Assembly: GCA_964543355.1 (NCBI GenBank)
Contig: CAZIYA010000003.1
Coordinates: 9,283 to 73,282 of the forward strand
Origin: an uncultured Polaromonas sp.
Lineage (GTDB): Bacteria; Pseudomonadota; Gammaproteobacteria; Burkholderiales; Burkholderiaceae_C
Length of the DNA: 64,000 nucleotides
Direction of reading: 5' to 3'
Each line of letters begins with the position of its first letter. Within the stretch, counting starts at the first letter, position 1. Positions 36,732-58,400 of the stretch are shown here, in pieces. The notes beneath the pieces were generated by a model. It saw nothing but the letters and a program-made list of their open reading frames with translations, ran no database searches and was not told the DNA's origin. A program made the translations under genes and the position numbers.

Positions 36732-36788
36732 GCAACCATCCCGGTCTGTGCTTCGGCACACCCCTTATTTTTTGGAACGGTGATTGAT

Positions 36789-38288: not shown

Positions 38289-38376
38289 TGCAGCGGAGCA
38301 TCAAGCGTATTTGAATAGGGGGCTGGCCGGTTCGGACCCGCCTCCATCTCTTGGTTGGTTATTTACGGAGTGACTC

Positions 38377-38868: not shown

Positions 38869-38922
38869 CGACCTGTGTTCTTTCACCGATGTCAGCCGGT
38901 TCGTTAAGAAACGCACGCGATC

Positions 38923-39384: not shown

Positions 39385-39386
39385 AC

Positions 39387-41150: not shown

Positions 41151-42160
41151 TCGAACGACTGGGCGACCGGCCGCAGGGCTTCAATCTCTTTCAGGCGATC
41201 AGCTTGCTGGAGCGCGCTTCGCCGCAACTGGCGCCTGTCGGCAAGGGCGACGGCCAGATGGAAGCTGTTCGCCTTAAATCGGTGGTTTCGCTGGGTTTTC
41301 AACCCAGCGATGTGAGCAGGGTCAGCGCGGGCGCAGAAGATGCGGAAGCCTGGATTCTGGCTACGCCGGTGCTGTCGCTCGCGGGTGCGCAGGGACCGCT
41401 GCCTTTGCCGTTCACCGAAATGGTGCTGGAGCGCACGGCTGCGCGTGACCACGCTACCGCTGACTTCCTGGACATTTTCAACCACCGCTTTCTGGCCTTT
41501 TTATACAGAAGCAGGAAGAAGCACCACATGGGTCTGAACTGGCAGTCGCCGCAGGCTTCATCGCTGGCGGGCTGCCTCGACGCTCTCAGTGCTTTGGGTC
41601 TGAAGGCGGGCCTGGGATCGCCGCAAGGTGAATCGTCCTGGCTCCGGCACGCCGGGTTGCTGGGCGGTGCGCCCCGCTCGATGACGGGGTTGATGGCCAT
41701 GCTGTCGGACCGCCTGGGCGTGGTGGCCAGAGGCCGGCAGTTTTGCGGTGGATGGCGCAATCTCGAGCCGCGCGATATCACCAGGCTGTCCGGCCGGGCG
41801 CCTGGCCGTGCAGCCCGGCTGGGGCGATCAGCCGTTCTGGGCAAGCGCGTGTGGGATCAGGGTGCGGGTATCACGCTTGAACTCTCCGGGCTGACATTGC
41901 GGCGCTTGAGACGCCTGTTGAGGGGCGGCGAAGAATACGGGCTGCTGGGCTGGATGGTGGGCAGGTATCTGCAGCAGGACGTTGGCGTGGAAATGGTTCT
42001 TCACATCGATGGCCGTGAACTCAGGCCAAGCATTCTGGGGCAGAAAGAGCCGCTACAGCTGGGGTGGACCTCCTGGCTGGTAAGCAGTACGCCTTATACC
42101 GGCACCTTCGCGCCTGCGAGGTTCAAACTTCATGACGATGCTGTCCCCGGCATGGCCTGA
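41114..42160 (+). CDS. tssG: T6SS baseplate subunit
   Basis: FNLFQAISLLE, GPLPLPFTE, DFLDIFNHR; 37-bp overlap with tssF. Confidence 0.93.
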   Translation: MGTDERPPAGALVERLGDRPQGFNLFQAISLLERASPQLAPVGKGDGQMEAVRLKSVVSLGFQPSDVSRVSAGAEDAEAWILATPVLSLAGAQGPLPLPFTEMVLERTAARDHATADFLDIFNHRFLAFLYRSRKKHHMGLNWQSPQASSLAGCLDALSALGLKAGLGSPQGESSWLRHAGLLGGAPRSMTGLMAMLSDRLGVVARGRQFCGGWRNLEPRDITRLSGRAPGRAARLGRSAVLGKRVWDQGAGITLELSGLTLRRLRRLLRGGEEYGLLGWMVGRYLQQDVGVEMVLHIDGRELRPSILGQKEPLQLGWTSWLVSSTPYTGTFAPARFKLHDDAVPGMA

Positions 42161-42177
42161 ACGAAACGGCACTCAAG

Positions 42178-44901
42178 ATGGAAATTGACATTCGCACCCT
42201 GCTGGGCAAGCTCAATCCCGAGTGCAAACGCGCGCTGGAAAAGGCCGCGGAGTTGTGTGTCCAGCAAACCCATTACAACGTGGATGTCGAACACCTGCTG
42301 TTCAAACTGCTGGAGACCGAAGCGCCGGATGTCTGCCTGATACTCCCGGAGTACGACATCAAGATGGACGTCATCCTGGCCCAGCTGCAGGACGCAATGG
42401 ACAGGTTCAAGCGGGGGAACGGCCGCACGCCGGCCCTGTCGCCGCATCTCGCGCCGCTGCTCCAGGAGGCGTGGCTGCTCAGTTCCATGTTGCTCGGTGA
42501 GCAGCAGGTTCGCTCCGGAACATTGATACTGGCATTGCTGGAGGTCGATAGCCTGCGCGGCGCTCTGCTGGAATCGGCGCCCGGCCTGCTGCAGATTCCG
42601 CGCGAGAGCCTGCGCAAGAACCTGGCCGATTTGCTGACCAACTCGGCCGAAGACGCCGGTGGCGCCGTGCGCTCGGCGAAACCGGCCGCCATGACGCAGG
42701 CGCAGGGCCCGGCAGCCGGAGCGGGTGTGTCGGAAGCCTCTTCCCCGCAAATGCCCACCATGCGCCGTGGCGCGTCATCCAACCCTTCGCTGGACCAATA
42801 TACCGTCGACATCACGGAACAGGCCAGGCAGGGCCTGATTGACCCCATCCGTGGGCGAGATGCCGAGATTCGCCAGATCATTGATGTCTTGTTACGTCGG
42901 CGGCAAAACAATCCCATCCTGACCGGTGAGGCCGGCGTCGGCAAAACCGCGGTGGTGGAAGGCTTTGCGCAGCGCATCGTGCAGGGCGAGGTTCCTCCTG
43001 CCCTGCAAAAGGTGTCGGTGCGCTCGCTGGACCTGGCCTTGCTGCAGGCCGGGGCGGGCGTCAAGGGCGAGTTCGAGAACCGCTTGAAATCCGTTATCGC
43101 CGAAGTCAAGGCCTCCCTGGTACCGATCGTGCTGTTCATCGACGAAGCACACCAGCTGATTGGCGCCGGCGGGGCAGAAGGCCAGGGCGATGCCGCCAAT
43201 CTTCTCAAGCCCGCGCTGGCGCGTGGGGAGCTGCGCACCATCGCGGCCACCACCTGGGCCGAATATAAAAAATATGTCGAGCGCGACCCGGCCCTGGCGC
43301 GACGCTTCCAGGTGGTCAAGGTTGATGAGCCTACCGAGGAGGTCGCCATTGACATGCTGCGCGGCATGGTCCAAACGCTGGAAAAGCACCACGGTGTCGA
43401 GATCATCGACGATGCAGTCAGGGACGCCGTCAAGCTGTCGCACCGCTATATCTCGGGGCGCCAGCTTCCCGACAAGGCCATCAGCGTGCTGGATACGGCG
43501 TGCGCGCGCGTGGCCATTGGGCAGAACGGCCTGCCGCCGGAACTCGAATCGGTGGCGCGCGAAATTTCCAATGCGGAAAACCAGCTGCGGATCTTCCGCC
43601 ATGAATCTGCAACCGGGCGCGACCATGTGCACGCGATTGCCGCGCTGTCGCTGGAACTCGAAGGCCTCAGGCAACGCCAGCGCCGCCTGACGGAAAAGCT
43701 TGAAGAGGAAAAAAATGCAGTCGCCGAAATTGTGGCACTGCGCAAGCGCATCGCCGAAGGATTGAAGGAAGACGGCAGCCAGCTGGAAGGCGAAGACAGC
43801 GAAGACATGTCCGCCTCACTGAACCGGCTCGAGAAAGGGCTGGATGCGATCCAGAGCGACGAACCCATGATTCCGGTGTGTGTCGACTCCGGCGTGGTTG
43901 CTTCCGTGATCTCCGGCTGGACAGGTATTCCAGTCGGCAAGATGCTGGCCGACGAGTTGCATACCGTCCTCAACCTCAAGGAAAAACTGGCCGAGCGCGT
44001 GGTCGGGCAGGACCAGGCGCTGGATGCGATTGCGCGACGTGTCCGGACTTCCCGTGCCGACCTGGATGATCCGGGCAAGCCGGTCGGGGTCTTTCTGCTG
44101 GTGGGGCCCAGCGGCGTCGGCAAGACCGAGACCGCATTTGCACTGGCAGACATGATTTATGGAGGTGACCGCAACATGGTGACCGTCAACATGTCCGAAT
44201 TCCAGGAGGCGCACACCGTGTCCAGCCTCAAGGGAGCGCCGCCGGGCTATGTCGGTTATGGCCGTGGCGGCGTCCTCACAGAGGCAGTCCGGCGCCGGCC
44301 TTACAGCGTGGTCCTGCTTGACGAGATGGAAAAGGCGCACCCCGATGTGCTGGAGCTGTTTTTCCAGGTCTTCGACAAAGGTGTCATGGAAGATGGCGAA
44401 GGCGTCCAGATCGATTTCAAGAACACGCTGATCCTGCTGACGTCCAATGCTGCCCAGGATGTCATCACCGATGCCTGCGAAGGCGGGCGCCGGCCGGATC
44501 CGGAAGTCCTGATCGAGCGCTTGCGGCCGGTATTGACGCAGCAGTTTTCGCCGGCTTTTCTCGGGCGGCTGGCGATTGTTCCCTATTACCCGCTCGGCGA
44601 CGAGCAGATCCGGTCCATTGTGAGTCTCAAACTGGGAAAACTGGCCCAGCGCTTCTCCCGCAACCACAAAGCCGAGTTCACCTGGGACGATGCCGTGGCG
44701 CAAACCATCACGGCCCGGTGTACGGAAGTCGACAGCGGCGCGCGCAACGTCGACCACATCCTGTCGCATGCCGTTCTGCCTGAGCTTTCACGCCAGGTGC
44801 TGGAGCGGATTTCCATGTCCGATGCCTTTGACGAGGTACACATGGGCGTGGATGCACGTGACGATTTTTCCTTTACTTTCGGCCCGCCGAAACAGGCATA
44901 G
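42178..44901 (+). CDS. tssH: T6SS AAA+ ATPase ClpV
   Basis: Two Walker A motifs (GEAGVGKT, GPSGVGKT), RRRQNNP, GAPPGYVG. Confidence 0.96.
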   Translation: MEIDIRTLLGKLNPECKRALEKAAELCVQQTHYNVDVEHLLFKLLETEAPDVCLILPEYDIKMDVILAQLQDAMDRFKRGNGRTPALSPHLAPLLQEAWLLSSMLLGEQQVRSGTLILALLEVDSLRGALLESAPGLLQIPRESLRKNLADLLTNSAEDAGGAVRSAKPAAMTQAQGPAAGAGVSEASSPQMPTMRRGASSNPSLDQYTVDITEQARQGLIDPIRGRDAEIRQIIDVLLRRRQNNPILTGEAGVGKTAVVEGFAQRIVQGEVPPALQKVSVRSLDLALLQAGAGVKGEFENRLKSVIAEVKASLVPIVLFIDEAHQLIGAGGAEGQGDAANLLKPALARGELRTIAATTWAEYKKYVERDPALARRFQVVKVDEPTEEVAIDMLRGMVQTLEKHHGVEIIDDAVRDAVKLSHRYISGRQLPDKAISVLDTACARVAIGQNGLPPELESVAREISNAENQLRIFRHESATGRDHVHAIAALSLELEGLRQRQRRLTEKLEEEKNAVAEIVALRKRIAEGLKEDGSQLEGEDSEDMSASLNRLEKGLDAIQSDEPMIPVCVDSGVVASVISGWTGIPVGKMLADELHTVLNLKEKLAERVVGQDQALDAIARRVRTSRADLDDPGKPVGVFLLVGPSGVGKTETAFALADMIYGGDRNMVTVNMSEFQEAHTVSSLKGAPPGYVGYGRGGVLTEAVRRRPYSVVLLDEMEKAHPDVLELFFQVFDKGVMEDGEGVQIDFKNTLILLTSNAAQDVITDACEGGRRPDPEVLIERLRPVLTQQFSPAFLGRLAIVPYYPLGDEQIRSIVSLKLGKLAQRFSRNHKAEFTWDDAVAQTITARCTEVDSGARNVDHILSHAVLPELSRQVLERISMSDAFDEVHMGVDARDDFSFTFGPPKQA

Positions 44902-44907
44902 AGGCGC

Positions 44908-46899
44908 ATGCGGACTGGCTTCAAACAGACGAACTCGGCGTTGACGGTGACCACACCGTTCGGTGCGGACGTGTTGTTGCTCGACTCCTTCCAGGGCGTG
45001 GAGGCCATCTCCCAGCCTTTCAGGTTTTCGCTGGCGATGCGTTCGTCCGACACAGGTCTGGATCCGGCCCTGATTGTGGGCGCTTCGGTCACGGTCAAGC
45101 TTGCCTTGCCGGACGGACCCGCCCGGTTTTTCAACGGCATCGTGTCGCGTTTCATGCATGCAGGCGGTGACCGCTCTTTCTCGTCCTATTCGGCGGAGCT
45201 GGTTCCCAGCCTCTGGCTTCTGACACTCAGCAGGGACAGGGCCATCTACCAGAACAAGACGGCGGCCGACATCATCAAGGCCATCCTGGGCGAGTTTGGC
45301 GTGACTTTTGATGCGCAGCTGACAGGTACCTATGGAAGCCGCGAATACTGCGTCCAGTACGACGAGACCGCACTGGAGTTCATCTCCCGGTTGATGGAGG
45401 AGGAAGGCATCTTCTATTTCTTCACCTTCACCGATGGTGGACACACCATGGTGCTGGGCGACAGTTCGGCAGCCCATATCGATGGTGTGGGTGGGGCCGC
45501 CCTGCGCTACTTCCCGGACCCGGGCGGGCGCCGCATGATGGATACCGTCAATCAGCTGGAATACGAGAGCCGACTGGTGGCGCAGAAGTTCGAATACAGC
45601 GACTACAACTACCTCACGCCCAGCACCGCCTTGCTGACCGAATCCGCTGGGGCGACGGGCAAGGGAAAGCAGTTCGAGTTCCCGGGCAAACATGCAGTGC
45701 TGGCCGATGGCACGCAGCGCGCCAAGGTCCGCGCCGAAGCCAGCCAGGTCGACGGCGCGGTGTGTCGCGGCACGAGTTATTGCTACCCGCTTTCTGCGGG
45801 GAGGAAGTTCACGCTCTCAGGTCACTCGAGAACAGCATTGAACACGGCGCTGGTGCTGCGGGCCGTGACCCACATGGCCAGCAACGAGCAGTACAGCAAC
45901 AGCTTTGAGGCGTTTGCCGCCACCGTGCCCTTCCGTCCGCCGCGACTGTCGCCGTTGCCGCGGGTTTCAGGCAGCCAGACGGCGCTGGTGGTGGGTCCCA
46001 GCGGCGAGGAGATATGGACCGACACGCACGGGCGGATCAAGGTGCAGTTTCATTGGGACCGGATTGGCGTCAAGGACGAAAACAGTTCGTGCTGGGTGCG
46101 CGTTTCCCAGTCCTGGGCCGGGCTGGGCTGGGGAAGCCTGTTCCTGCCGCGGATTGGACAGGAGGTGGTGGTCAGTTATGTTGATGGCGACCCCGACCGG
46201 CCTATTGTTACCGGCTGCGTCTACAACGCAGAGAACACCACGCCAGTGACGCTGCCGGGCATGCAAACCCAGAGCACCATCAAGTCCCGCGCCTCCAAGC
46301 AAGGCACCGCCGGCAATGAGATGCGAATGGAAGACAAAAAGGATTCGGAAGAGTTCTATTTTCATGCGCAAAAAGACATGAAGGTCGAAATAGAAAACGA
46401 CCTGAGTACCAAGCTGGTCAAGGGTTCCGAGACGCACACGCTGGAAAAGGGGGATCGCACTGTCGATGTCCAGACCGGCAAGGAAGTCCACAAGGTCAAG
46501 GGCACGCGGGAGCTCACGGTCACCGGCAATGAGACTCATACCAACAAGGCTGATTTCAGCCAGGCCGTCACCGGGAACTACGAACTGAAGGTCACGGGCA
46601 ACCTGGTGATTGATGTGACGGGCTCCATCACGATCAAGTCCGGGACCACTTTCGGTGCCGAGGCCGGCACCTCCCTCACCAGCAAGGCAGGCACAGCGCT
46701 GACCAACGAGGCCGGCACCTCCCTGACCAACAAGGCCGGGCTGGACCTGACGAACCAGGCGGGTACCGGGTTGAAGAACAAGGCCGGGACCACGCTGGAC
46801 AACGAAGGTGCGATGGTGACCAACAAGGCGTCAGCCATGCAGACGGTGGACGGTGGCGGGATGCTGACCCTCAAGGGTGGCCTGGTGAAGATCAACTGA
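44908..46899 (+). CDS. vgrG: T6SS spike protein VgrG without C-terminal effector domain
   Basis: CVQYDET..FISRLMEEEG, GRIKVQFHWDR, PRIGQEV, DGDPDRP; 8-aa beta-helix repeats. Confidence 0.96.
   Translation: MRTGFKQTNSALTVTTPFGADVLLLDSFQGVEAISQPFRFSLAMRSSDTGLDPALIVGASVTVKLALPDGPARFFNGIVSRFMHAGGDRSFSSYSAELVPSLWLLTLSRDRAIYQNKTAADIIKAILGEFGVTFDAQLTGTYGSREYCVQYDETALEFISRLMEEEGIFYFFTFTDGGHTMVLGDSSAAHIDGVGGAALRYFPDPGGRRMMDTVNQLEYESRLVAQKFEYSDYNYLTPSTALLTESAGATGKGKQFEFPGKHAVLADGTQRAKVRAEASQVDGAVCRGTSYCYPLSAGRKFTLSGHSRTALNTALVLRAVTHMASNEQYSNSFEAFAATVPFRPPRLSPLPRVSGSQTALVVGPSGEEIWTDTHGRIKVQFHWDRIGVKDENSSCWVRVSQSWAGLGWGSLFLPRIGQEVVVSYVDGDPDRPIVTGCVYNAENTTPVTLPGMQTQSTIKSRASKQGTAGNEMRMEDKKDSEEFYFHAQKDMKVEIENDLSTKLVKGSETHTLEKGDRTVDVQTGKEVHKVKGTRELTVTGNETHTNKADFSQAVTGNYELKVTGNLVIDVTGSITIKSGTTFGAEAGTSLTSKAGTALTNEAGTSLTNKAGLDLTNQAGTGLKNKAGTTLDNEGAMVTNKASAMQTVDGGGMLTLKGGLVKIN
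46660..46803 (+). repeat. Six imperfect 24-bp coding repeats (xAGTxLTN) in vgrG
   Basis: EAGTSLTS KAGTALTN EAGTSLTN KAGLDLTN QAGTGLKN KAGTTLDN. Confidence 0.8.
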
Positions 46900-46900
46900 G

Positions 46901-47638
46901 ATGGCGACGCAAAAAACCTCCACCACTGCGGTGCCCGCGGAAACGCCCGCTGGCGAGATGCAGCGCGGCTTTGTCGAGCGCGAGCAGTTCAACGACACCG
47001 GCGGGCTGACCAACCGTGCCGGTTTGCTGGATGGCGTGCTCCAAGGCGAAATGCGCTCTTTTGGTCCCGACGGGAAACTGCTTGCCAGCGCCCAATACGA
47101 TGCCGGCGTGCTCCATGGTGTTCTCAGGCTTTTTGATGAGCAGGCCAATCCGGTGCAGGAGGCGAATTACAGCCGCGGTTTGCAACATGGCGTGACCCGC
47201 GTCTTCGTGAAAGGGCGCTTGTTGTCCGAGCAGCGGTTTTCGAATGGGAGTCTTCATGGCGAGTCGGTCTCCTATTCGGAAGCCGGAGAGATCGCCATGA
47301 AGCAGAATTTTTTCAGAGGCGAGGTGGAGGGCGAAGCCCTGTTCCTGAACGAGGGTGAAGTGGTCCGCCGTTCGCAGTACCGCAAGGGCCTGCTGGAAGG
47401 GGAAACGCTGGACTACGACCGCGACGGTGCGGTGGTGCAGAAAGCCGGTTACAGAAACAACCTGCTGGAAGGGCCGCTGACACGGTATTGGCCGGACGGG
47501 CAGGTGATGGAGGTGTTGTTGTACCGCGCAGGCAAACCTGTCGGCAAGCCCAGGCGTTTCGACAGCAAAGGGGTTGAACTGCGTGACGACGCCAAAACCA
47601 GCCTCATGAAACGTCTCGAAAAACTGGTGAAGGGCTGA
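46901..47638 (+). CDS. MORN-variant repeat protein (YwqK-like)
   Basis: Repeating YxxGxLxG...Y/F units of about 24 aa; 1 bp after vgrG. Confidence 0.78.
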   Translation: MATQKTSTTAVPAETPAGEMQRGFVEREQFNDTGGLTNRAGLLDGVLQGEMRSFGPDGKLLASAQYDAGVLHGVLRLFDEQANPVQEANYSRGLQHGVTRVFVKGRLLSEQRFSNGSLHGESVSYSEAGEIAMKQNFFRGEVEGEALFLNEGEVVRRSQYRKGLLEGETLDYDRDGAVVQKAGYRNNLLEGPLTRYWPDGQVMEVLLYRAGKPVGKPRRFDSKGVELRDDAKTSLMKRLEKLVKG

Positions 47639-47640: not shown

Positions 47641-48027
47641 ATGGGCATTCAGGTCGCCGTAGGCGCAACCCTTCAGTGCAGTTTTGGCGTGGCTCCCAGC
47701 GTACTCACCGTGCTTCCCGCGAACCGTGTGCTCACGGGCGGGCCGGCCGCGAACATCATGGACCATGTTCCGTTTGTCAATGTGCTGCCCTTTGGCATGT
47801 GCAATTGCCCCTCCAATCCGATGGTGGCCGCCGCGACGGCCGCCGCTCTCGGCGTGTTGACGCCCATGCCCTGCATTCCCATGACCGCGGCACCCTGGAT
47901 GCCCGGCTCAGCGACGGTGATGCTGGGCGGGATGCCTGCCTTGCAGAACTCTTCCAAGCTGATGTGCCAGTGGGGCGGCGTCATCCAGATTCTTGTCCCG
48001 GGGCAGTTCACCGTGATGGTCCCTTAA
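47641..48027 (+). CDS. DUF4280 PAAR-like spike tip protein
   Basis: GATLQCSFG, PFGMC, PMPCIP, LMCQWGGVI cysteine pattern. Confidence 0.88.
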   Translation: MGIQVAVGATLQCSFGVAPSVLTVLPANRVLTGGPAANIMDHVPFVNVLPFGMCNCPSNPMVAAATAAALGVLTPMPCIPMTAAPWMPGSATVMLGGMPALQNSSKLMCQWGGVIQILVPGQFTVMVP

Positions 48028-48046: not shown

Positions 48047-48262
48047 ATGCAATACACTTTGTCGCTGACGACCCGGATGATGACCATTGCCGGGCTTTGC
48101 CTGCTGCTGCTTTGTGTGCTCCTGTTCCTGCTCGGGGTGGAAATCGGCAAGAAGATTTCTTCACCCGCAGAAGGAATTGCGCCCGCAGCTGCGCTAACCG
48201 CAACCCCGCCTTCGTCAGCGCCCGTCGGGGAAGCGCCTTCGCCCCCCGTTGCCAAACCATGA
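48047..48262 (+). CDS. Small single-pass membrane protein with Pro/Ala-rich tail
   Basis: Hydrophobic IAGLCLLLLCVLLFLLGV; ATGA overlap with the next gene. Confidence 0.65.
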   Translation: MQYTLSLTTRMMTIAGLCLLLLCVLLFLLGVEIGKKISSPAEGIAPAAALTATPPSSAPVGEAPSPPVAKP

Positions 48263-49224
48263 ATCAGGATTTGATGATGTCAAAAACTCAGCCCGGACAG
48301 CCCTTGCACAGCCAGTCAACGTCGTGGTGGAAAGCCGGCTTGTTTGTTCTCGGGTTCTGGGGGTGTGCCGGTGCGGCCTTCGCGGCGCCCCTTGCTGTCA
48401 GCGCGGCCCCTGCCGCTCCGGTGACGGAGGTGGCGCCGGTACCCTCTCCGCTGCCCGCTCCGAGCCTGGTCAAGGTGGCCGATGGCCGACTGCTGGCGCC
48501 CAGCATTGCCCGCATCGTCAATCGGGGAGAACTCATTGTTGCGATGCTTGGCGTGGACACGCCGCCGTTCTTTTACGTGAAGAAGGGGGAGCTGGTCGGT
48601 CTGGAGGTAGACCTGGCCAAAGCGATTGCGAAGGAGCTCAAGGTCAACGTCAGGTTTGACCGCAGCGCCCGCACCTTCAATGAGGTGGTTGATGTGGTCG
48701 CGCGCCAGGAGGCTGACCTCGGCATCAGCAAGCTGTCGCGGACCTTGGCGCGGGCCCAGATGATCAGCTTCACCGAGCCCTATATCCGCCTGAACCACGC
48801 GTTCATCCTGAACCGGGTGAAGTTTGCCGAACTGGCTCGGGACCGGCCCTTGCCCGTTGTGGTTCGCGAGTTCAAGGGTTCCATCGGGGTCATTGCGAAA
48901 TCGTCCTTCTCGGACTACGCCAGCAAAAATTTCCCGCTTTCGGAGCTTCGCGAATTTCCGACCTGGGACGCTGTCCTCAAGGCGCTTGAAAAAGGCCAGA
49001 TCATGGCCGCCTATCGTGATGAGTTTGAGATCAAGCGGATTCTGAAGAGCGACCCGACGGCCTCCCTGACATTGCGCACGGTCACTTTCAAGGACCTGGA
49101 AGACACCCTTGGCATTGCCGTGGGCATTCAGGATCCGACGCTCCTGGCCTTTGTGAACCAGTTTTTGGCCGAGAGCACCGAAAAGCTGACGATTGACAAG
49201 GTGCTGAAGGCCCTGGACCGGTAA
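48259..49224 (+). CDS. Polar amino-acid-type periplasmic binding protein (SBP family 3)
   Basis: IVNRGELIVA, PPF, GLEVDLAKAIAKEL, SRTLAR...FTEPY; signal-like N-terminus. Confidence 0.88.
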   Translation: MNQDLMMSKTQPGQPLHSQSTSWWKAGLFVLGFWGCAGAAFAAPLAVSAAPAAPVTEVAPVPSPLPAPSLVKVADGRLLAPSIARIVNRGELIVAMLGVDTPPFFYVKKGELVGLEVDLAKAIAKELKVNVRFDRSARTFNEVVDVVARQEADLGISKLSRTLARAQMISFTEPYIRLNHAFILNRVKFAELARDRPLPVVVREFKGSIGVIAKSSFSDYASKNFPLSELREFPTWDAVLKALEKGQIMAAYRDEFEIKRILKSDPTASLTLRTVTFKDLEDTLGIAVGIQDPTLLAFVNQFLAESTEKLTIDKVLKALDR

Positions 49225-49241
49225 TCGATTAACTAAGGCGT

Positions 49242-50522
49242 GTGATGATCAATCTCAAAAAACTCTATGCATTTGCGCTCAACCCCTGGGTGGTGGTGGC
49301 CAGCCTGTCGGCCGGGTTCGCGCTGGGCATGTACATGCCTGCTGTCGGGCTGAAGCTCGGTTTTGTGGGCGATGTGTATGTCGATCTCCTCAAGATGATT
49401 GCCTTGCCCTTCATGGTGTCGGCCGTGATCTTCAGTTTGCAGCGCCTGTTCCGGGAGGGCGGGGCCGGCGGGCTGATGGCTCGCGTGGCGGTGGTGTTCG
49501 TCGTTTTTTCGATTGTTGTAGCGCTGCTGGGGGCGACAACGCTGCTGGTGATGAAGCCGGGCTCCAACCTGTCAAGCGAAACCATGCAAACTTTCGGCAA
49601 GATCGTCGGCAACGATCTCAATTCCAGCGACACGGTCATGAGCCTGGGCGGTGTCGATGCGCCGGTCAAGTCGGTGAGTTTCACCGAGGTGCTGGTCAGC
49701 CTTGTGCCGTCGAATATTTTTGCCGCGCTGGCCAGCGGCGACACGCTCAAGGCGCTTGTTTTTGCGCTGCTTTTCGGTTTTGCGGTGGGCCAGGTTCCGT
49801 CGCGGGTTTCCGACGGGTTGACCCAGTCCCTGGAAACCATTTACCACTCCTGTCAGACCCTGATGCGCTGGTTGAACTACCCGCTGCCCATCATTCTTTT
49901 CTGCATGAGCGCTGCGCAGATGGCCAAAACCGGCATCGGCCCCCTGCAGGCCATGGCCCAGTTTGTCCTGGCGTTTTTTGTTGCTTCCGTGCTGGCCCTG
50001 GTCATTGCAACAATCATTATCTGGAAGCGTTCCAATTCGACGCTGGGCCAGACCCTCAATGCCATGCGAGGCCCCTTTGCGCTTGCGCTGGCGACCCGCA
50101 GCAGCGCGACATGCATGCCCATCATGATCGAAAGTCTGGCGGACCGCCTGGGTTTTGCGCGTTCAAGGGTCGAGCTGATGGTGCCCCTGAGTGTGTCGCT
50201 GCTGCGTATCGGGCCGGTGATCTATTACGTGGCCGCCACCGTGTTCATTGCCCAGCTGTATGGAAAACCGATTGGTCCGACAGAGCTGACCGTCATCCTG
50301 TCGGCATCGATCCTTGCCGGCTTTGCATCAGCGGGCATGACCGGTTTGCTCACGGTCTCGCTGGTCGGCCTGACATGCAGCTACCTCGGCCTTCCGTTTG
50401 AGGCGGCTTTCATCCTGTTTCTGGCGGTGGATCCGATTTGCGACATGCTCAGGACCCTGGTGCTGGTGATTGGCAACAACGCGGCGGTTTCCCTGATCTG
50501 CCCCCGGCCCCTGAAGATATAG
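49242..50522 (+). CDS. Dicarboxylate/amino acid:cation symporter (DAACS/SLC1 fold), atypical
   Basis: GDVYVDLLKMIALP, VPSNIFAAL, TRSSATCMP, DPICDMLRT; NMDG motif replaced. Confidence 0.85.
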   Translation: MMINLKKLYAFALNPWVVVASLSAGFALGMYMPAVGLKLGFVGDVYVDLLKMIALPFMVSAVIFSLQRLFREGGAGGLMARVAVVFVVFSIVVALLGATTLLVMKPGSNLSSETMQTFGKIVGNDLNSSDTVMSLGGVDAPVKSVSFTEVLVSLVPSNIFAALASGDTLKALVFALLFGFAVGQVPSRVSDGLTQSLETIYHSCQTLMRWLNYPLPIILFCMSAAQMAKTGIGPLQAMAQFVLAFFVASVLALVIATIIIWKRSNSTLGQTLNAMRGPFALALATRSSATCMPIMIESLADRLGFARSRVELMVPLSVSLLRIGPVIYYVAATVFIAQLYGKPIGPTELTVILSASILAGFASAGMTGLLTVSLVGLTCSYLGLPFEAAFILFLAVDPICDMLRTLVLVIGNNAAVSLICPRPLKI

Positions 50523-50531
50523 GAGGCCAGG

Positions 50532-51248
50532 ATGTCCCGAATCGGCGTATTTGGAGGAATGGGGCCATCAGCAACGGTCGACTTTCTCGACAAGCTGGTC
50601 AAGCTCACCCCTGCTGCGCGCGACCAGGACCATCTGCCGGTCATCGTGGCGAGCTTGCCGCATACCCATGACCGTTCCAGCGCCATTCTGGGGCATGGGC
50701 GGGATCCCCTGCCGCAGTTGCTGGCCGGCATCGAGATGCTTAATCAGGCTGCCGTTGGCGTCATTGCCATTCCCTGCAATTCGTCGCACCACTGGTTTGA
50801 TGAAATGAGTTCGAGCAGCAAGGTGCCGTTGCTGCATATTGCCAAGGCCTGTGTCGAGGCGATTCCTCCCACGGGTGTCTCGCGGGTGGCCATTTTTGCC
50901 ACGAGGGGCGCTTTGGCCTCAGGCTTCTACCAGCGGGAACTTCGGTCGCGCGGCGTTGACTTCATGCTCCCGGATCCCGAGGCCGGCCAGAAGAATGTGG
51001 ACAGTTGCATACGCGAAATCAAGGCCGGCAACCTGGATGCCGGCGGGCAACATCTGACCGAAGCCTGCCGGGAGGCCGCGCGGCAAGGTGCCACCACCAT
51101 CATCATGGGCTGCACCGAAATTCCCATTGCCTCCAGGTACGCAGATGTATTGGGTCTGGGACTGATCGACAGCTCACTGGAGCTGGCGCGAGCCAGTGTT
51201 GCTTTTGCCCTCGCACGAGGCTGGAACAGGCCGGGATGGGATTCCTGA
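50532..51248 (+). CDS. PLP-independent Asp/Glu-type amino-acid racemase (RacX/YgeA-like)
   Basis: IGVFGGMGPSAT, IPCNSSH and GCTEIP, with both catalytic cysteines present. Confidence 0.9.
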   Translation: MSRIGVFGGMGPSATVDFLDKLVKLTPAARDQDHLPVIVASLPHTHDRSSAILGHGRDPLPQLLAGIEMLNQAAVGVIAIPCNSSHHWFDEMSSSSKVPLLHIAKACVEAIPPTGVSRVAIFATRGALASGFYQRELRSRGVDFMLPDPEAGQKNVDSCIREIKAGNLDAGGQHLTEACREAARQGATTIIMGCTEIPIASRYADVLGLGLIDSSLELARASVAFALARGWNRPGWDS

Positions 51249-52720
51249 AGCGCCTGTCGAACAGTCCGCTGGCGCTCCTGCTTTGCGTAATGGGGGGCGC
51301 ACTGCTGGGCTGGTTTGCGCCTGGCGTCGGTGGCGAGGCCTTCATTCTGGGACAGATCTACCTGGCCCTGGTCAATATGGCTGCGCTTCCGTTGCTGGTT
51401 GTGGCCACTTTTTTCGGCCTGCGCCAGACATTGGCCCTGCCGCAGCCTGGAAAACGCACATTGATGATTGTGGGTCTGGCGATCGGCCTGGTGGTGTTGT
51501 GTGCAGTGCTGGGGGCGATGTTCGGTATGCTTGCCGGTACCGGTCAGGATCTGAGCTCTGCCAACCGTGAATACCTCGGCGCCCTGGTGCAAAACGCCGG
51601 CGGAGATGCCGCAAACGCCGAAATTTCCCTGTATGGTGCTGGAGCTTCCGACGTGACAGCAGCGCCCGATTTGTGGATGGCTGCGGTGCCGGACAATTTT
51701 TTCCGGGTGCTCGCCGAAGGCCAATCACTGTCTATCCTGCTGTGTGCCATCCTGTTCGGGCTGGCTTTTGCGGCACTGCTCAGGCCGCAAACCAATGCCC
51801 TGATGGGTATTTTCGAAGCGATTTACCGCACCCTTGAGTTGATCATTTCCCGCGTCAACGTCTTTATTCCCGTGCTGGCTTTTGGCATGGCCGCTTATTT
51901 TGTCGCCAGGACCGATGCCCGAACGCTTCATGCGATGGGCAGTTTTCTGGGTTCCTTCTACCTGTTCGCTTTTTTCCTCTCCGGAGCGGCCTTCCTGCTG
52001 ATCTGGAAGAAGTCAGGGCTTTCTCCGGCCAGTGTGATGTCGGCGCTGAAGGCGCCTGTCCTCATCAGCCTGACTTCAGCCAGCACCACGGCAAGCATTC
52101 CCGACACGATAGAGGCCATGAGTTCCCGATTGGGGTTCAGCCGGGGCATTGTCGAGCTGGTGATTCCGGTTGCGTCGGTGTTCATGCGTTCCGGTGCGGC
52201 ACTCTATTTCTCGCTGCTGGCAGTGTTCGTGGCCAATATCTATGGGCGCCCCATCACATCGCAGGAGTTCCTGCTGATCTGCGTCGGTGCTTCGCTGGCG
52301 GCGTTTGCATCGGCTGGCAACAATAGCCTGGCGGCAGTGGGGTTCGCCGGGGTGGTGCTGTCCCTGTTGAATCTGCCCATAGAAGCGGCGCTGGCACTTT
52401 TTCTGGCGATCGATCTTGTCTGTGAAGGCCCGCGCAATCTGCTCACGCTGCTTTTTGCCTGTGTGCTGATCGCGCTGGTTTCCCGCGGACTGCCTTCGGA
52501 GCGTATTGAAACCGCCGCGTCGGCGAACCTGCGGACGCTGGAGCCTGTCCGCTTTGTTTTTTCCCGGGCAAGTGTTGCAATGGCGCTGGCTTGTGTCCTG
52601 CTGGCGGCGTTATTGATTACGATTGCGGGTATCGGCGTCGGGATGCGAAAGACCGGCGTGGGCCTGCCCCAGCCGTATGCAACGGGGCCCATGGCCGTCG
52701 CCGGGAACAGCCCTGTTTAA
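51236..52720 (+). CDS. Second atypical DAACS-fold transporter with extra C-terminal TM segment
   Basis: GQIYLALVNMAALP, VPDNFF, SASTTASIP, DLVCEGPRN; overlaps the racemase stop. Confidence 0.8.
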   Translation: MGFLKRLSNSPLALLLCVMGGALLGWFAPGVGGEAFILGQIYLALVNMAALPLLVVATFFGLRQTLALPQPGKRTLMIVGLAIGLVVLCAVLGAMFGMLAGTGQDLSSANREYLGALVQNAGGDAANAEISLYGAGASDVTAAPDLWMAAVPDNFFRVLAEGQSLSILLCAILFGLAFAALLRPQTNALMGIFEAIYRTLELIISRVNVFIPVLAFGMAAYFVARTDARTLHAMGSFLGSFYLFAFFLSGAAFLLIWKKSGLSPASVMSALKAPVLISLTSASTTASIPDTIEAMSSRLGFSRGIVELVIPVASVFMRSGAALYFSLLAVFVANIYGRPITSQEFLLICVGASLAAFASAGNNSLAAVGFAGVVLSLLNLPIEAALALFLAIDLVCEGPRNLLTLLFACVLIALVSRGLPSERIETAASANLRTLEPVRFVFSRASVAMALACVLLAALLITIAGIGVGMRKTGVGLPQPYATGPMAVAGNSPV

Positions 52721-52727: not shown

Positions 52728-53216
52728 ATGAAATTTCTAAAAATTTGCCTGATCAGTCTTGTTTTGGGGAGCTTGTCGGCCTGCGGCACCATCAGCAGTG
52801 TTGCCGGGTTCTTCACGGCGAAAGGAAGCCGCCTGGACTGGAACGGCATGACTGTCATCGCGGGCGAGGGTGCCAACCTGAACACCCCGGTTGCGCTGGA
52901 TGTGGTGCTGCTTCGGGACGACGCAACGCTGGGCATGGTGTCGACATTGCCGGCGTCCAAATGGTTCTCATCCCGCGCCGATCTGGCCAAGACCTTTCCC
53001 GAGGGGTTGAGCTACCGCAGCATGGAGATCGCGCCCGGGCAGACCCTTAAACTTCCCGCCGACGCCTTCGGGGCGTCTCGCGTCGTTGGCGTCCTGCTTT
53101 TTGCGGACTACCTGACGCCCGGGGAGCACCGCGTACGGGTCGACCAGATGCAGGGGGAAATACTGGTGCAGCTGGGTGCGCGTTCATTCTCCGTGTCAGC
53201 CCTGAAGACCGAATAA
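52728..53216 (+). CDS. tssJ: T6SS outer-membrane lipoprotein (TssJ-like)
   Basis: Lipobox LSAC, ANLNTPVALDVV, FADY; directly before tssKLM. Confidence 0.75.
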   Translation: MKFLKICLISLVLGSLSACGTISSVAGFFTAKGSRLDWNGMTVIAGEGANLNTPVALDVVLLRDDATLGMVSTLPASKWFSSRADLAKTFPEGLSYRSMEIAPGQTLKLPADAFGASRVVGVLLFADYLTPGEHRVRVDQMQGEILVQLGARSFSVSALKTE

Positions 53217-53294
53217 GCCGAGGAGGCCCTATGAAGAAAAAAGCCAAGACGCTCCGTATCCCGGAAGGGCTCGCGACACATGGAGGGGCTCTCC

Positions 53295-54623
53295 ATGGTT
53301 AAGTCCTTCCCGGTTGAAGAGCGTATCCAGTGGCATGAAGGCATGCTGTTGTCGCCTCAGCATTTCCAGCAGGCATCGGCCCGGCTCGACTCCCTGGTGG
53401 CCTGGCACACGCTGCTGGCCGCCCCTTTTTCATGGGGTGTGCGCAGCCTGAAAATCGACATGGGGCTGTTGCCGGCCGGCATTGTCAGGGTCCAGCAGCT
53501 GGAAGCCATCATGCCGGACGGCACCTCGGTCAGCTTTTCGGCAGACAACGTCCAGCATGGCACGCTCGAGCTCAAACTGGCCCCGTTTGCCGAAGCGCTG
53601 GGTAACGCCCCCCTGGACTTCTACCTGGTCCTGCCGCTGACCAAAAGCATGCGCGACAAGGGCTCGCCCTCGCGATTCCGTTCGGTTGCCATGGGCCAGG
53701 TGGAAGACGAGGTGTCGGAGGCTTTGCCTGCGGACCTCCCGCGGCTGCTGCCCAACCTCTCGCTGGTCGCGGGGGATGTGCCCTCGGGGCTTTATACCTG
53801 GCTGCGCCTGGGCACAGTGTTCAAGGACAACGAACTCATCAAGATGGGCGAGACCCTGCCCGCGCTGATCGAGATGCCGAAAGACGGCGCCTTGTGGGAG
53901 CGGGTGTCTGCCTTCGTCGGCCAATTGCGCGGCAAGGCGGCTTTTGTGGCGAAGCAGACAGCTGTGCCGTCCTCCAAAACCGAGGACAGGCTGGCCTATC
54001 TGGAGCAAAGGGAGCGGCTGCGCAACCTGATGACCGGCCTGCCGCAAATCGAAGCCGTCCTGCGCACACCGAATTTGCACCCCTATCCCCTGTACCTGGC
54101 GCTGTGCGCCCTGCTCGGGCCCCTGAGCATGCTCAAACCCGGCGCCTTGCCGCCCGTACCGCCCGCATACGATCACGCCGATCCGCTGGCGGTGCTCAAC
54201 CCGGTGCTCGAGGCCTTGCAGGACTCCCTGATGGAAATCAGCCAGGAGTACCGGGAGCACAAGTTCGAATACCGCCACGGGGCGTTTGAAATCAAGCTGT
54301 TGCCTGAGTGGGTCGACAAGCAGCTGGTGGTGGGCTTGCGCGGCCAGCCCGAAAAAGACCTGATCGCCTGGATGAACGGCGCCATTGTCGGGTCCCAGTC
54401 GGCTTATGCGTCGCTCAGGGAGAGACGCGTGCTCGGTGCCATGCGGTCGCACATTGAAGTAGCCCAGGAGCTCGGTGTGCGGGCCAGCTCGGGGTACACC
54501 CTGTTTTCCATTCAGGCCAGCGCCGCCCTGACGCTGGCCAATGAGCCCCTGATCATCAGCAATTCCACGGAAAGCGCGTCTGCGCAGCGCCCGCAGGAAA
54601 TGGTTCTCTTCGTCAAGGGCTGA
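53295..54623 (+). CDS. tssK: T6SS baseplate connector
   Basis: IQWHEGMLLSPQHFQQ, WGV, IMPDG, HPYPLY, YDHAD. Confidence 0.93.
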   Translation: MVKSFPVEERIQWHEGMLLSPQHFQQASARLDSLVAWHTLLAAPFSWGVRSLKIDMGLLPAGIVRVQQLEAIMPDGTSVSFSADNVQHGTLELKLAPFAEALGNAPLDFYLVLPLTKSMRDKGSPSRFRSVAMGQVEDEVSEALPADLPRLLPNLSLVAGDVPSGLYTWLRLGTVFKDNELIKMGETLPALIEMPKDGALWERVSAFVGQLRGKAAFVAKQTAVPSSKTEDRLAYLEQRERLRNLMTGLPQIEAVLRTPNLHPYPLYLALCALLGPLSMLKPGALPPVPPAYDHADPLAVLNPVLEALQDSLMEISQEYREHKFEYRHGAFEIKLLPEWVDKQLVVGLRGQPEKDLIAWMNGAIVGSQSAYASLRERRVLGAMRSHIEVAQELGVRASSGYTLFSIQASAALTLANEPLIISNSTESASAQRPQEMVLFVKG

Positions 54624-54647
54624 CGCTCCAACAGAAAGCAGCGAACA

Positions 54648-55406
54648 ATGGCACGCCAAACCCGAGACAAACAGGACGACAACCACCTGATCGCGCAGTT
54701 TCGCTCTTTTTTCGACGAAGTTTCGAAGGCCCAGACCCGCGCGATCGAGATGCGCGAAACCGACCCGGACCTGGCCGCCCAGCATGTCAGCAAACACCTG
54801 GAAAACCTCATCGAGCTGCAAACACTAGAGTCCAAGCGTGAGGGCAACCGGTTTGAGCTCGAGAGCATTGCCGATGCGCGTTACCTCAAGGCCGCGCTGG
54901 CCGATGAAATCCTGCTCAACACGGCCTGGATAGGCCGTGACTGCTGGACCACCCATTTGCTGGAGGCTTCCCTCTTCAGAACCAGTATTGCCGGCGAGCG
55001 GATTTTCGAACGCATAGAAGAACTGCTGTCCAGCCGCGAGCCGTCCTTGCGCCCGATCGCCAGCCTTTACCTCTCGGCGCTGGCGCTGGGCTTCCAGGGC
55101 AAATACCGCGGAGCAGCCGACACGGATCGCTTTGCAGGCTACCGGGAGGAGCTGTTCCAGTTTGTCTACCAGCGCAGGCCCGATCTCTCCGGCCGGGACC
55201 GCGTCCTGTCAGACCGCGCTTATGCCAGTACGTTGTCGCATATTGCGCCGAAGAAGATGCAGACATTGAGCCGCTGGACGGTGGTTTTCCTCCTCGGGGT
55301 TGTCGGATTGCTGGCCATCTCTGAAATGCTCTGGCTGTGGCAGTCCTGGCCGGTGCGGCAGGTCCTGCAGACCGGCAGCACGACAGGAACGGGGGGCAGC
55401 CAATGA
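54648..55406 (+). CDS. tssL: T6SS DotU/TssL inner-membrane protein without OmpA domain
   Basis: ARY..AALADE.LL, AGERIF, LGFQGKYR, single C-terminal TM. Confidence 0.92.
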   Translation: MARQTRDKQDDNHLIAQFRSFFDEVSKAQTRAIEMRETDPDLAAQHVSKHLENLIELQTLESKREGNRFELESIADARYLKAALADEILLNTAWIGRDCWTTHLLEASLFRTSIAGERIFERIEELLSSREPSLRPIASLYLSALALGFQGKYRGAADTDRFAGYREELFQFVYQRRPDLSGRDRVLSDRAYASTLSHIAPKKMQTLSRWTVVFLLGVVGLLAISEMLWLWQSWPVRQVLQTGSTTGTGGSQ

Positions 55407-55440
55407 AATCGCTTTCTCCAATGCGTCCGGGAGGCCGGCG

Positions 55441-58400
55441 ATGCTGAAAGACAACCTGTTTTTGGCGTCCCTGGGCGTCCTGATTGTCCTGGTGCTGGTT
55501 GTTCTGGGCCTGGTGCTGTATTTTGCCCTGCGCCGCTCGGCTGCCAAGCCCGGCAGTGATCCCAAGATCGTCAAGCTCCGGTTTGACTCGCTTCGCAACT
55601 CCTTCAGGCAGGCGGTTGAACTGATCGAGGGCAATATTGCTTCCCGGAGCGAGCGCTACAGCATTCCCTGGGTGCTGGTACTCAATGAAGGCCTGGATAA
55701 CCGGCAACTGCCCATTGAACAGTCGGGCGTGGCCAGTGCGCTCAGCTCCGAGGCCGCTTCCGCGGCCACAACCCAGGGCATCGCCTGGCACTTCTTTGAC
55801 AAGGGCATTGTCATTGACATGCAGGGCGCCTATCTGGGTTCGCCCGACGATGAAGATGCCACGGAAAAACCGTGGGACGAGTTCCTCGGCCTGTGCCGCA
55901 AATACCGGCCCCAGCGGCCCTTTGACTCCGTGGTCATCACTGTGCCGGCTGCCTTGCTGCTGGACAACAACCCGGATGCCCTGCTGGAACTCGGCAAGCT
56001 GGCCCGCCTCGCGCACCGCCGGCTCTGGCTGGCGCAAAACCGCTTTGCCATGCGGTTTGCCGTTTACGTCGTAGTCTCCGGGTGCGACCAGATCGAAGGT
56101 TTCTCCCCTTTCGCCAGGGCGCTGCCCGAGCCCATGCGCGCCGGCATTCTCGGCTGGTCATCGCCTTACGATTTGTCCACCACCTATCAGGACGGCTGGG
56201 TTGGCGAGGCACTCGACAGTGTCGTGAAAACGGTCTCCGACACCTCGGCCGAACTCTTTGCGCTCGATTCGGTCAGTGCAGAAACAGGCAAATTCTTTCT
56301 GCTTCCGTCCCGGATCGATGCGGTTCGGGCGCAACTGCAGGTTTATGTGGACGAACTCATGCGGCCCAGTGCCTACCATGAGCCGTTTTTCTTTCGCGGC
56401 ATTTACCTGACCGGCGACAGCAGCGAATCGGCGCAGAAGGCCGGCGCCCTTGATGTCGCGGCGGCGCTGAACGGTGAAACGAAGGAAGAGCAGGCCGACC
56501 TGGTGTCGCAGCTGATGCGCGAACCGGCTTTCCTGCGGGATCTTTTCGAGAAAAAGATCTTCATGGAGTACGGCGTGGCCAGGCCGTCCCGCCAGCAGTT
56601 GACGCGGCCGGTGCTGAGCCGCGCCGCACGCTGGGCTGCGCTGGTAGTGTTGGGGGGCTGGAGTGTGGGCCTGCTGGTGGCCACGGTGCAACTGAGCAAA
56701 CGCAACCCCGAACTGGCCAGGGCCCTGTCGCAGATCGAGACCGACGCCAACTACCGCGCCCGCGCCAGCGAGCGCGGTGAACCTATCGCCTCGGACTGGT
56801 ACCGGACGAAAACCCTTTCCCTGCTGGCTGCCATCGAGAAGCTCGGAACCGACAAGGCCTGGACGTTTTTCATGCCCGGCTCGTGGGAGGTTTTTGACAA
56901 CCTGGATGAGCGCGTGGCCGCGCGCATAGAGCGCGAGTTCGGCGAGATTGCCATCAACACCCTGCGGCGCGAACTGTATGCGCGGGCAGCTGACATGACC
57001 GGGGTATCCCAGGATGCCAGCACCTCGGAACTCATCATCGGCGGCGAGTGCGCCGCGCCCGCGGGATTTGCCGCGATTGCAGGCACGCCGCACAAGTTCA
57101 GCCTGGCGGTCGAGGACTTGCCGGAGTTCTCGGCCATGTTGCAATACCTGACAGCCGTCGAGCGGCTTGACCAGGCGATTGTGGCCATGGTTCGCCTGCA
57201 AAAACCCAACCAGAACGAGGCCAACGACCTCAGGTTGCTGGTCAAGTACACCCTGGGCGCCGAACTGCCGGGCAACATGTCGCAGAGCATCCGCTTCTTC
57301 AGGGGCAGCGATATTCCCGGGAGCATCTCACCGGCGGCCATCAGCGTGATGCACATCCAGCAGGCAGTACGCTGTTCGCTGGACAGGGGAATGAACGCCC
57401 TGGACAGGCGCCTGTTCGTGAACAACGACCTGCTGGTCTCCGAGCGGCAGCTCGCGGCGCAGGGTGCGCGGCTGTTTGCCACCGATGCGCGTATTGGCGG
57501 CTACACCCAGACCGTGGGTGGCTACAAGGAGATCCTGAGGGCGATCAAGGAGCAGGAGAGTTTGCTGGCCACCGGCAAAGGCGGCTGGATGAGGCTGTCC
57601 GGCCTGAACCTGGGTTCGGCCTATGACGCTGCACTGATGCGTATCACCCAGTCCAGGCGCCTGCTCGGGCCGGAAGCTTCGGACCAGGTGCGCCAGCATG
57701 CTGTCACCGAATTCCAGAAATTCAGGACCGAGTTTGAAGCACTCCTCGGGGTCGAAGGGCAGGCCGGTGTTGTCTGGCAGGAAAAGGACGCGCGTTTTGC
57801 GCTGTCCACCGACAGGCTCGCCCTGCGCGATGCGCTCACAGGGCTGCTGGCGCAGCCTTTCATGACGCCGCCCAGCGACCGCGAGATTCCCGAGATCGTG
57901 GCGCAGAGCATTCTGGTATGGGACAGCACCAGGCTGGACCAGGCCCTGGCGCTCAGTGAAGCGCACAAGCGCTTCTTGGGCGAAGGCCTGGTCAAGTTCC
58001 CGCCTGCAACCCGCCCCAGCGTTGCGGCCTTTGTCAACTTCCAGTTTGCACGCCTGGTCGGTGACCACGCGGTTGAAGCCCTGTCGATCAGCGGCAGGAC
58101 CGATCCCGGTGCGGTGGCCGATGCCATGGCGTTCGACGCTTCGCGAAGCCGCCTGGTCAAGGTCCAGGGACTGCTCACGGAACTTGGCGCCAAAGGCAAG
58201 GCGGACAACTTGCGTAGCCTGATTTCGCAGGATGCAGTTGCGCGCCTGCGGCAGGTCGACGACAGTTTGACCCAGTCCGACCTGTATGCCATCCGGGGGC
58301 GGGACTTCAGCTATTGGCTGGGTGATCGCGGTCCGCTGTTGCAGGCCTTCGGTGTGCCGGATGGCCCCAGCCTGCTGCAGACCCTGGCACTGCAGTTCAG

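Follow-up and report, generated by a model that had tools for sequence, protein, structure and literature searches.

Why should a type VI secretion system (T6SS) carry genes for the uptake and racemisation of amino acids? The question is raised by a stretch of 64,000 nucleotides from an uncultured Polaromonas sp. (contig CAZIYA010000003.1, positions 9,283 to 73,282), referred to below as the window. A complete T6SS was identified on its plus strand by Pfam and NCBIfam, running from tssB (36192) to tssA (60647). Between the PAAR-like gene and tssJ lie genes for a small membrane protein, a family-3 periplasmic binding protein (SBP), a transporter of the SDF/DAACS fold (D1), a two-cysteine racemase and a second, degenerate DAACS paralogue (D2). 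The reading that we favor, with a probability of about one half, is that the last four of these genes are a captured operon for the uptake and racemisation of an acidic amino acid, accessory to secretion.

A published cluster and its insert

The arrangement had been put forward, from the letters of the window, as a best candidate for a novel system. However, comparison with T6SS-b (also T6SS-8) of Paraburkholderia phymatum, locus L069, showed 20 genes in identical order with 35-83% identity. The P. phymatum locus and L001-L003 fall in one 70-row TssK clade with a support of 99, and D1 of the window is 100% identical to D1 of the Polaromonas assembly L001. By gene order and identity, the locus is an orthologue of P. 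phymatum T6SS-b, a published cluster, and the system is not new. In the Results and part of the Discussion of Hug et al. 2021 (PMC8356804), a hypothetical protein, a binding protein, two symporters and a racemase are described 3' of vgrG in P. phymatum T6SS-b, and 15 further carriers are listed, as well as one that lacks the racemase. The two symporters were called 'intriguing', and a substrate unlike that of DctA and a sensing role were proposed. These parts of the paper report no test of a module gene, and they mention no stand-alone trio, no relatives without the module, no xRxG motif and no D2 tail, the last four being described below; the alignment in Supplementary Figure 1 may show the motif change. 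A literature search on the locus tags of the module and on 'T6SS-8' returned only Hug et al. 2021 and Spiewak et al. 2019 (PMC6612558); PMC9846239 and PMC12316311 contained nothing of relevance. No functional test of the module genes was found in the literature, subscription papers and supplementary figures lying outside the search. As to the cluster as a whole, two Paraburkholderia species were killed less when vgrG carried an insertion, possibly polar according to the authors (de Campos et al. 2017, PMC5732942). Deletion of P. phymatum tssBC reduced swimming by 29% and left symbiosis unaffected.

The layout proposed by the original prediction, a tight insert of five genes on one strand without scars of insertion sequences (IS), was confirmed in strand and spacing. 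Spacers of 19, 17-20, 9 and 7 bp precede the small gene, D1, the racemase and tssJ, respectively, and SBP and D2 overlap the gene before them by 4 bp and 13 bp; the most likely start codon of D2 is ATG 51236. The identities given to the genes and the idea of uptake and racemisation also fit the evidence. The extent of the insert had to be revised. The small gene is kept in T6SSs that lack the module, in 3/3 genome loci and 9/12 metagenome loci (it was not seen in module-less L179, L185 and L187), so the insert consists of four genes and a five-gene module is ruled out. Judged by this retention, the small gene belongs to the T6SS subtype and lies outside the insert. Its 38 members showed no Pfam family except for single chance matches. 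Acidovorax TssW was considered as a counterpart of the small gene and set apart by description only, since it belongs to another T6SS and is located in the outer membrane.

An IS-mediated or recent insertion in the Polaromonas genome is unsupported by the composition of the region: the Pfam scan of the window found no transposase family, the repeat scan found no long repeats, and the GC content of the module genes is 0.59-0.61 vs. 0.57-0.64 in the T6SS genes. In seven pairwise comparisons, dN/dS was 0.02-0.14 for the module genes and 0.03-0.27 for the small gene. Every module gene is under purifying selection.

Distribution and history of the insert

The association of the insert with the T6SS was evaluated in several sets of loci. 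T6SS genes were present in 58 of the 68 genome loci selected for D1, comprising 46 with racemase and D2, 8 with D2 and no racemase, and 4 that are cut short. They were not seen in the other 10 loci, which come from 9 genomes. TssK was not found in 7 of these genomes, and the remaining 2 have a T6SS-b elsewhere that retains only SBP and D2; the two T6SSs with SBP and D2 alone are L071 and L073. Ramlibacter albus (G005) has both a stand-alone SBP-D1-racemase trio (L020) and a separate T6SS-b with only SBP and D2 (L071/L072). In an even sample of 300 genomes of the family, a D1-type gene was found in nine: six with this TssK and D2, and three with SBP-D1-racemase alone. The six D2 genomes are the same as the six with this TssK. 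With selection on the T6SS instead, this TssK occurred in six of 400 genomes of the order, of which two had the full module, one lacked the racemase and three, from one genus, had no module. Finally, alignment of TssJ found 142 metagenome loci, of which 80 were kept and 49 span PAAR to tssJ; the set was not dereplicated, and the query was drawn mostly from loci with the module. The spanned loci comprised 27 with the full module, 10 without the racemase and 12 without the module.

The module is thus missing from related T6SSs (12/49 spanned loci) and occurs without T6SS genes (10/68 loci, and 3/9 carriers in the even family sample), which goes part of the way to the refuting outcome named by the original prediction, and an obligate linkage is refuted in both directions. 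Two near-identical pairs of loci, L175/L174 (93-99% DNA identity) and L172/L180 (90-94%), differ by the module only. The aligned core genes of the module-less L172, L175, L198, L111, L113 and L115 are free of stop codons; L179, L185 and L187 have one stop inside the tssM alignment. The insert is accessory and dispensable for keeping an intact T6SS. Two other T6SSs of this subtype, L162 and L167, have a GC content of 33% and lack both the module and a clpV gene between tssG and vgrG.

The sites from which the T6SS has gone were identified in two genera. On the contig of the window, a response regulator is followed by the T6SS and then by a Na+/H+ exchanger, PLA1 and uvrD, and the T6SS of G010 is at the equivalent site. 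Polaromonas L007, L008, L011, L013 and L048 have only SBP-D1-racemase 5' of PLA1-uvrD, and the response regulator is found upstream of the trio in L011 and L047. In the Polaromonas stand-alone trios, similarity to the window at the DNA level breaks off at the stop codon of the racemase; L011 retains 56 bp from the start of the small gene. The T6SS of Ramlibacter G213 lies between rplQ and a cytochrome c gene, where L020 and L068 have only SBP-D1(-racemase). At these sites of T6SS loss, both genera have retained SBP and D1, in most cases together with the racemase. D2 is gone from all nine T6SS-free loci that could be assessed, while D1 stayed.

In trees built with FastTree and rooted at the midpoint, the stand-alone D1 copies of Polaromonas and Ramlibacter nest among T6SS copies, and supported branches force at least four label changes. 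Stand-alone copies make up the deepest transporter branches and the distant relatives with 29-48% identity to D1, and the deepest TssK branches lack the module. Stand-alone SBP-D1-racemase was also found in unrelated contexts (L074, L075, L076, L099, L101, L103 and L104). The simplest history consistent with these trees would be that an uptake operon was captured by an ancestral T6SS-b and that either partner was then repeatedly lost; the four-gene insert likely began as a stand-alone uptake operon.

Several further copies were recorded. A Gemmobacter plasmid (L070:6402-11309) carries SBP-DAACS-racemase-DAACS beside GMC oxidoreductases but lacks a T6SS, and the second transporter there is no orthologue of D2. 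In L074:109-12009 and L076, the trio closes a same-strand type I secretion run (OEP, HlyD, C39-peptidase ABC), with a LanM lanthipeptide synthetase nearby in L074 and a split D1 in L076. The loci L005, L009, L010, L046, L066 and L067 are titled Acidovorax caeni, Kapabacteria, Asaia, Sphingobacterium or Bordetella; since their copies are Comamonadaceae-like (D1 73-96%), they are probably mis-binned or mislabelled.

All 30 of the D2 proteins checked have an extra hydrophobic C-terminal helix. Profiles of this tail and of the small protein gave an ungapped alignment of 41 columns (hhalign 96.4%, E 1e-9), and none of 91 control windows from D1 and D2 exceeded 11%. When the tail profile was searched against 48,098 ORFs of its own genome, the top non-self match was the small gene (E 0.0034). 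Among 27,685 sequences (all loci and representatives), it gave 96/113 small proteins at 13 bits or more, the best unrelated sequence scoring 8.7, and the small-protein profile ranked 7 D2 tails above any unrelated sequence. The pN of the tail was well below pS in 7/7 comparisons. These profile matches identify the D2 tail as homologous to the small T6SS protein. It likely originated when the operon inserted at the small gene with a duplication, the downstream copy becoming fused to the last transporter, D2 itself being a second copy.

The possibility was considered that the operon is a mere passenger, situated between T6SS genes and using the T6SS promoter with no functional tie, the tail being a relic of the insertion. 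The many losses in both directions would suit such a passenger, and a duplication at insertion accounts for the tail without a function. However, the disappearance of D2 from all nine assessable T6SS-free loci, the presence of the tail in every D2 checked, the constraint on the tail, and the co-inheritance of the module across several Burkholderiales families make this explanation improbable.

Transporters, binding protein and racemase

The sodium signature of glutamate transporters consists of N310, M311, D312 and D405, and acidic specificity is set by D394 and R397 (Reddy et al. 2025, PMC12668577). The TM7 sequence NMDGT of GltTk and the ancestral aspartate transporter is replaced by LRIGP in D1 and MRSGA in D2. 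Of the 139 rows taken from the collected loci, 138 have arginine in place of M311 and none has D312. Among the best 150 representatives of the profile search (50%-identity clusters), 146 could be scored, with arginine in 118 and D312 in 0, so that D312 is absent from at least 146 clusters at this level. Neither D1 nor D2 is a standard sodium symporter, because the signature N310, M/S311, D/E312, D/E405 is lost, reading LRI...N in D1 and MRS...A in D2. The combination M311L and D405N of a proton symporter is not found either: D1 has D405N, but arginine at 311. An internal arginine may stand in for Na+ in these xRxG transporters. What is most unusual about the locus, the lost sodium motif and the D2 tail, had escaped the original prediction.

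Carriers of the xRxG type are accompanied by a binding protein. A member of the SBP family accompanies the transporter in 79 of 82 loci, and the other 3 loci are truncated upstream; an SBP is fused to the transporter (D1 relatives) in 7/17 long representatives scanned. The best solved-structure matches of the SBP are generic family-3 proteins. Pfam found no ABC permease or ATPase, and hence no ABC amino-acid importer, between the PAAR-like gene and tssJ; for this reason, the SBP most likely feeds the carriers in the manner of a TRAP transporter. By analogy, the xRxG subfamily with its family-3 binding protein is likely a TRAP-like importer. The literature search found no paper on the pairing of NMDG-less DAACS with a family-3 binding protein. 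Fusions of DAACS and binding proteins are listed by annotation pipelines, and the pairing may therefore not be unseen. Uncoupled glutamate-transporter homologues often neighbor amino-acid enzymes (PMC12668577). Three xRxG transporters, P0182, P0196 and P0234, are fused to a dCache-adenylate cyclase, and others lie beside HD-domain and adenylate cyclase genes (L102:178-11841 and L075:2814-4970).

A binding protein implies uptake, and import is very probably the direction of transport. D1 keeps the HP1 serine motif and the equivalents of D394, R397 and T398 (D401, R404 and T405), and D401 and R404 are found in the 12 commonest TM8 variants (65 rows), as in acidic DAACS. With the aspartate-racemase-like active site of the neighboring enzyme, these residues make an acidic substrate probable. 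D2 has D394E, T398N, N401T and D405A, mostly with E and R at 394 and 397, and its residues vary in HP1, HP2 and TM8. A decaying D2 is ruled out by a dN/dS of 0.08-0.13 and by an intact fold; its model has the full GltPh-type fold and matches GltTk and GltPh (E 3e-14).

A RacX/YgeA-type label for the enzyme could not be upheld. PRK10200 gave 58.7 bits vs. a cut-off of 417, and the Pyrococcus aspartate racemase (PDB 1JFL, E 6e-41) is a closer match to the racemase than the YgeA-type enzyme of E. coli (E 3e-13). Both catalytic cysteines (C82, C194) are present in 54/54 homologues. R48 and K164 align with 1JFL and presumably bind the side-chain carboxylate. No TM or signal-like segment was found by a Kyte-Doolittle scan. 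A literature search on aspartate racemase operons in Proteobacteria found nothing.

The racemase also passes the model for the cysteate racemase CuyB (NF052483, cut-off 190) with 218 bits, and 9/9 homologues score 196-231. It could accordingly be a true CuyB in a module that imports and epimerises cysteate for sulfonate breakdown; all ten module racemases scanned pass the cut-off, and cuyB of Bilophila wadsworthia, which works with CuyA, adjoins an SDF transporter (PMC11193023). However, no cuyA-like gene was found in the module or the Pfam-scanned neighbors. CuyA/DcyD-like genes (TIGR01275, 272-298 bits), a search that does not tell CuyA from DcyD and covers many incomplete genomes, occurred in 5/30 racemase-bearing vs. 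2/15 other genomes, plus one partial match; co-occurrence of CuyA with the racemase was therefore rejected. The source genome (78% complete) has only a lower-scoring, likely ACC-deaminase homologue. A cysteate substrate is quite improbable. The PLP enzyme at G000:C415:2038-2997 (L118) shares 86-92% identity with genes of eight further Burkholderiales genomes and is likely an ACC deaminase rather than CuyA.

Another proposal was that a D-amino acid is made and exported, either for peptidoglycan editing, as immunity, or for signalling. Racemases are reversible, an ion-uncoupled carrier could run outwards, two transporters could divide import and export between them, and RacK of Acinetobacter baumannii offers a precedent (PMC7439305). 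The analogy, already drawn by the original prediction, is weak: RacK is a periplasmic enzyme that carries a signal peptide and produces D-Lys (PMC7439305), whereas the window enzyme lacks a hydrophobic segment and has an Asp-type active site, and the RacK label was rejected. The racemase, moreover, is dropped while both transporters stay, and the binding protein speaks for uptake. Wall editing is unlikely, and export as a whole is highly improbable.

In the captured-operon reading, the SBP would bind its ligand, an acidic amino acid and likely D-Asp or D-Glu, in the periplasm and hand it to D1, a transporter without the sodium-binding motif; in the cytoplasm, the racemase would turn it into the usable L form. 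Through co-expression, amino acids may be collected under the same conditions that lead the T6SS to fire. That the D form in particular is scavenged has about an even chance. The trio lies beside murQ, murA, a MurR-like regulator or anmK in three genomes (L101:4065-11549, L103 and L104), a weak hint of peptidoglycan-derived D-Glu. The tail may tether D2 to the small protein or to the apparatus, and a physical link between D2 and the T6SS is possible, at somewhat less than even odds.

A number of observations weigh against this reading. The P. phymatum T6SS-b promoter is most active on citrate, is constitutive on aspartate and shows low activity on glutamate (PMC8356804), so that acidic amino acids are not obvious inducers. 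D1 lacks T314 (P325) and N401 (L408), aspartate contacts in GltPh; with N401 and T314 missing, it may carry another substrate or nothing. Only 90 of the 140 representatives scored retain R397. The racemase is the gene most often dropped, from 8/54 assessable T6SS loci and 10/37 spanned module-bearing loci. The peptidoglycan-recycling neighbors are confined to one alphaproteobacterial genus. No lytic effector able to free amino acids from prey was identified in the cluster. A scan 5' of tssB found no sigma-54 site, the best match being 8/10 and its position not conserved among eight tssB upstream regions. The search of 747-2130-aa proteins found no fusions, those given above coming from the profile search, and the small-protein profile, run on its own genome, did not place the D2 tail in the top 10.

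The sensing role suggested by Hug et al. (PMC8356804) was also considered. SBP and D2 would act as a transceptor in which a ligand signal passes through the D2 tail and tunes assembly or firing, D1 and the racemase clearing the signal. D2 is one clade (58 rows, support 100) from T6SS loci only, and its coincidence with TssK in the even sample, the T6SSs that keep SBP and D2 alone, and the separate trio of R. albus agree with such a role. So does the combination of variable HP1, HP2 and TM8 with a constrained dN/dS and a conserved tail, and the cyclase fusions of P0182, P0196 and P0234 are found among relatives. On the other side stand the 12 module-less spanned loci, the six module-less loci without stops in aligned core genes, and the near-identical pairs that differ by the module; any gating would be optional, because module-less loci keep their core genes intact. 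Moreover, Pfam found no kinase or FHA gene among the tssB-tssA ORFs. A transceptor is an unlikely but credible explanation. It is doubtful that all of the following hold together: that xRxG proteins are an unrecognised, sodium-free elevator class fed by a binding protein, with arginine in place of Na+, that D2 is a transceptor fused to a duplicate of the small subunit and senses an amino acid such as D-Asp or D-Glu from lysed neighbors, and that D1 and the racemase eat it.

The surrounding cluster and known systems

The features of the locus are collected in Table 1. All 13 core T6SS components are present, TssJ being recognised by fold. T6SS-b was tabulated in 2017 as lacking TssJ (PMC5732942); in contrast, the product of the window gene at 52728-53216 has a TssJ fold, with a model pLDDT of 90 and TssJ/SciN as best structural matches (E 5e-6). 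PF12790 (TssJ) is weak and was seen in 13/36 tssJ homologues. Only one vgrG was found in the source genome at its 78% completeness. A sigma-70 scan gave matches at chance level.

Table 1. Coordinates of the T6SS, the insert and the genes between them in the window.
Feature	Position	Strand	Basis or remark
T6SS-b 5' block: tssB, tssC, hcp, tssE, tssF, tssG, clpV/tssH	36192..44901	+	Pfam/NCBIfam; P. phymatum T6SS-b order
vgrG	44908..46899	+	toxin domain not detected
MORN-repeat protein	46901..47638	+	PF07661; orthologue of 'YwqK-family antitoxin' Bphy_5986
DUF4280 PAAR-like spike tip	47641..48027	+	PF14107
Small one-TM T6SS-subtype protein, 71 aa	48047..48262	+	motif Y/F-x-F-S-x-T-x-R ... F-x-x-G-x-x-x-G
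SBP, family-3 periplasmic amino-acid binding protein (SBP_bac_3)	48259..49224	+	PF00497; likely partner of xRxG transporters
D1, SDF/DAACS-fold transporter	49242..50522	+	PF00375, 204 bits; LRIGP at 321-325
Two-Cys (C82, C194) aspartate/cysteate-type racemase	50532..51248	+	NF052483, TIGR00035, PDB 1JFL; predicted cytoplasmic
D2, degenerate DAACS paralogue	51236..52720	+	PF00375, 166 bits; MRSGA in TM7; 31% to D1
Extra C-terminal TM tail of D2, residues 437-472	52544..52651	+	homologous to small protein by profile
tssJ lipoprotein, lipobox LSAC	52728..53216	+	fold match to TssJ/SciN; misses Pfam cut-off
tssK, tssL, tssM, tssA	53280..60647	+	Pfam/NCBIfam

Directly after tssA, a 551-aa protein (60756-62411, plus strand) has a Pro-rich end and no family above cut-off and is a possible effector. 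A 27% match stands behind tssA in G756 and none in G010; in the Atlas, its matches at 0.90 were unnamed clusters, and a weak RTX lead appeared at 0.85. Divergent from tssB, a TPR-repeat protein with a C-terminal methyltransferase (33611-35335, minus strand) is conserved in G010 at the equivalent place with 81% identity. The 460-aa plus-strand ORF at 34550-35932 was rejected as a shadow of this gene.

The locus is a further copy of a published cluster, and the question raised in 2021, why two symporters lie inside a T6SS, can now be tested. New here are the four-gene insert, its separability in both directions, the xRxG motif with its link to the SBP, and the D2 tail. The insert splits into two parts, one metabolic (SBP, D1 and racemase), which remains when the T6SS is lost, and one bound to the T6SS (D2 with its tail), which disappears with it. 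A sizeable NMDG-less DAACS subfamily is tied to a family-3 binding protein and could show a new replacement for ion coupling.

The nearest known system is T6SS-b of P. phymatum STM815 (SecReT6 i4a; Bphy_5978-5997), with which the window has in common the single-strand order tssBC-hcp-tssEFGH-vgrG-MORN-PAAR-hypothetical protein-SBP-symporter-racemase-symporter-tssJKLMA. The window differs in its Polaromonas-like host and in the housekeeping genes that flank the cluster. D1 and D2 have the fold of the DAACS/SLC1 proteins GltPh, GltTk and the uncoupled AncInt, but have xRxG for NMDGT, have lost N401 and D405, are paired with or fused to an SBP and, in D2, carry the extra TM tail. TRAP transporters combine a periplasmic binding protein with an ATP-free elevator carrier. 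The logic of binding protein, ATP-free elevator carrier and an operon without an ABC ATPase is shared, although the parts are DctP with DctM/DctQ there and PF00497 with PF00375 here. RacK is likewise a racemase in a T6SS setting (PMC7439305); it is periplasmic, whereas the window enzyme is predicted to be cytoplasmic, is Asp-type and lies inside the T6SS operon. Finally, Bilophila CuyB and Pyrococcus 1JFL share the two-Cys PF01177 enzyme with the window, and Bilophila CuyB also shares the NF052483 match and the SDF transporter neighbor; unlike Bilophila CuyB, the window enzyme has no CuyA or RidA partner, is accompanied by a binding protein and is embedded in a T6SS.

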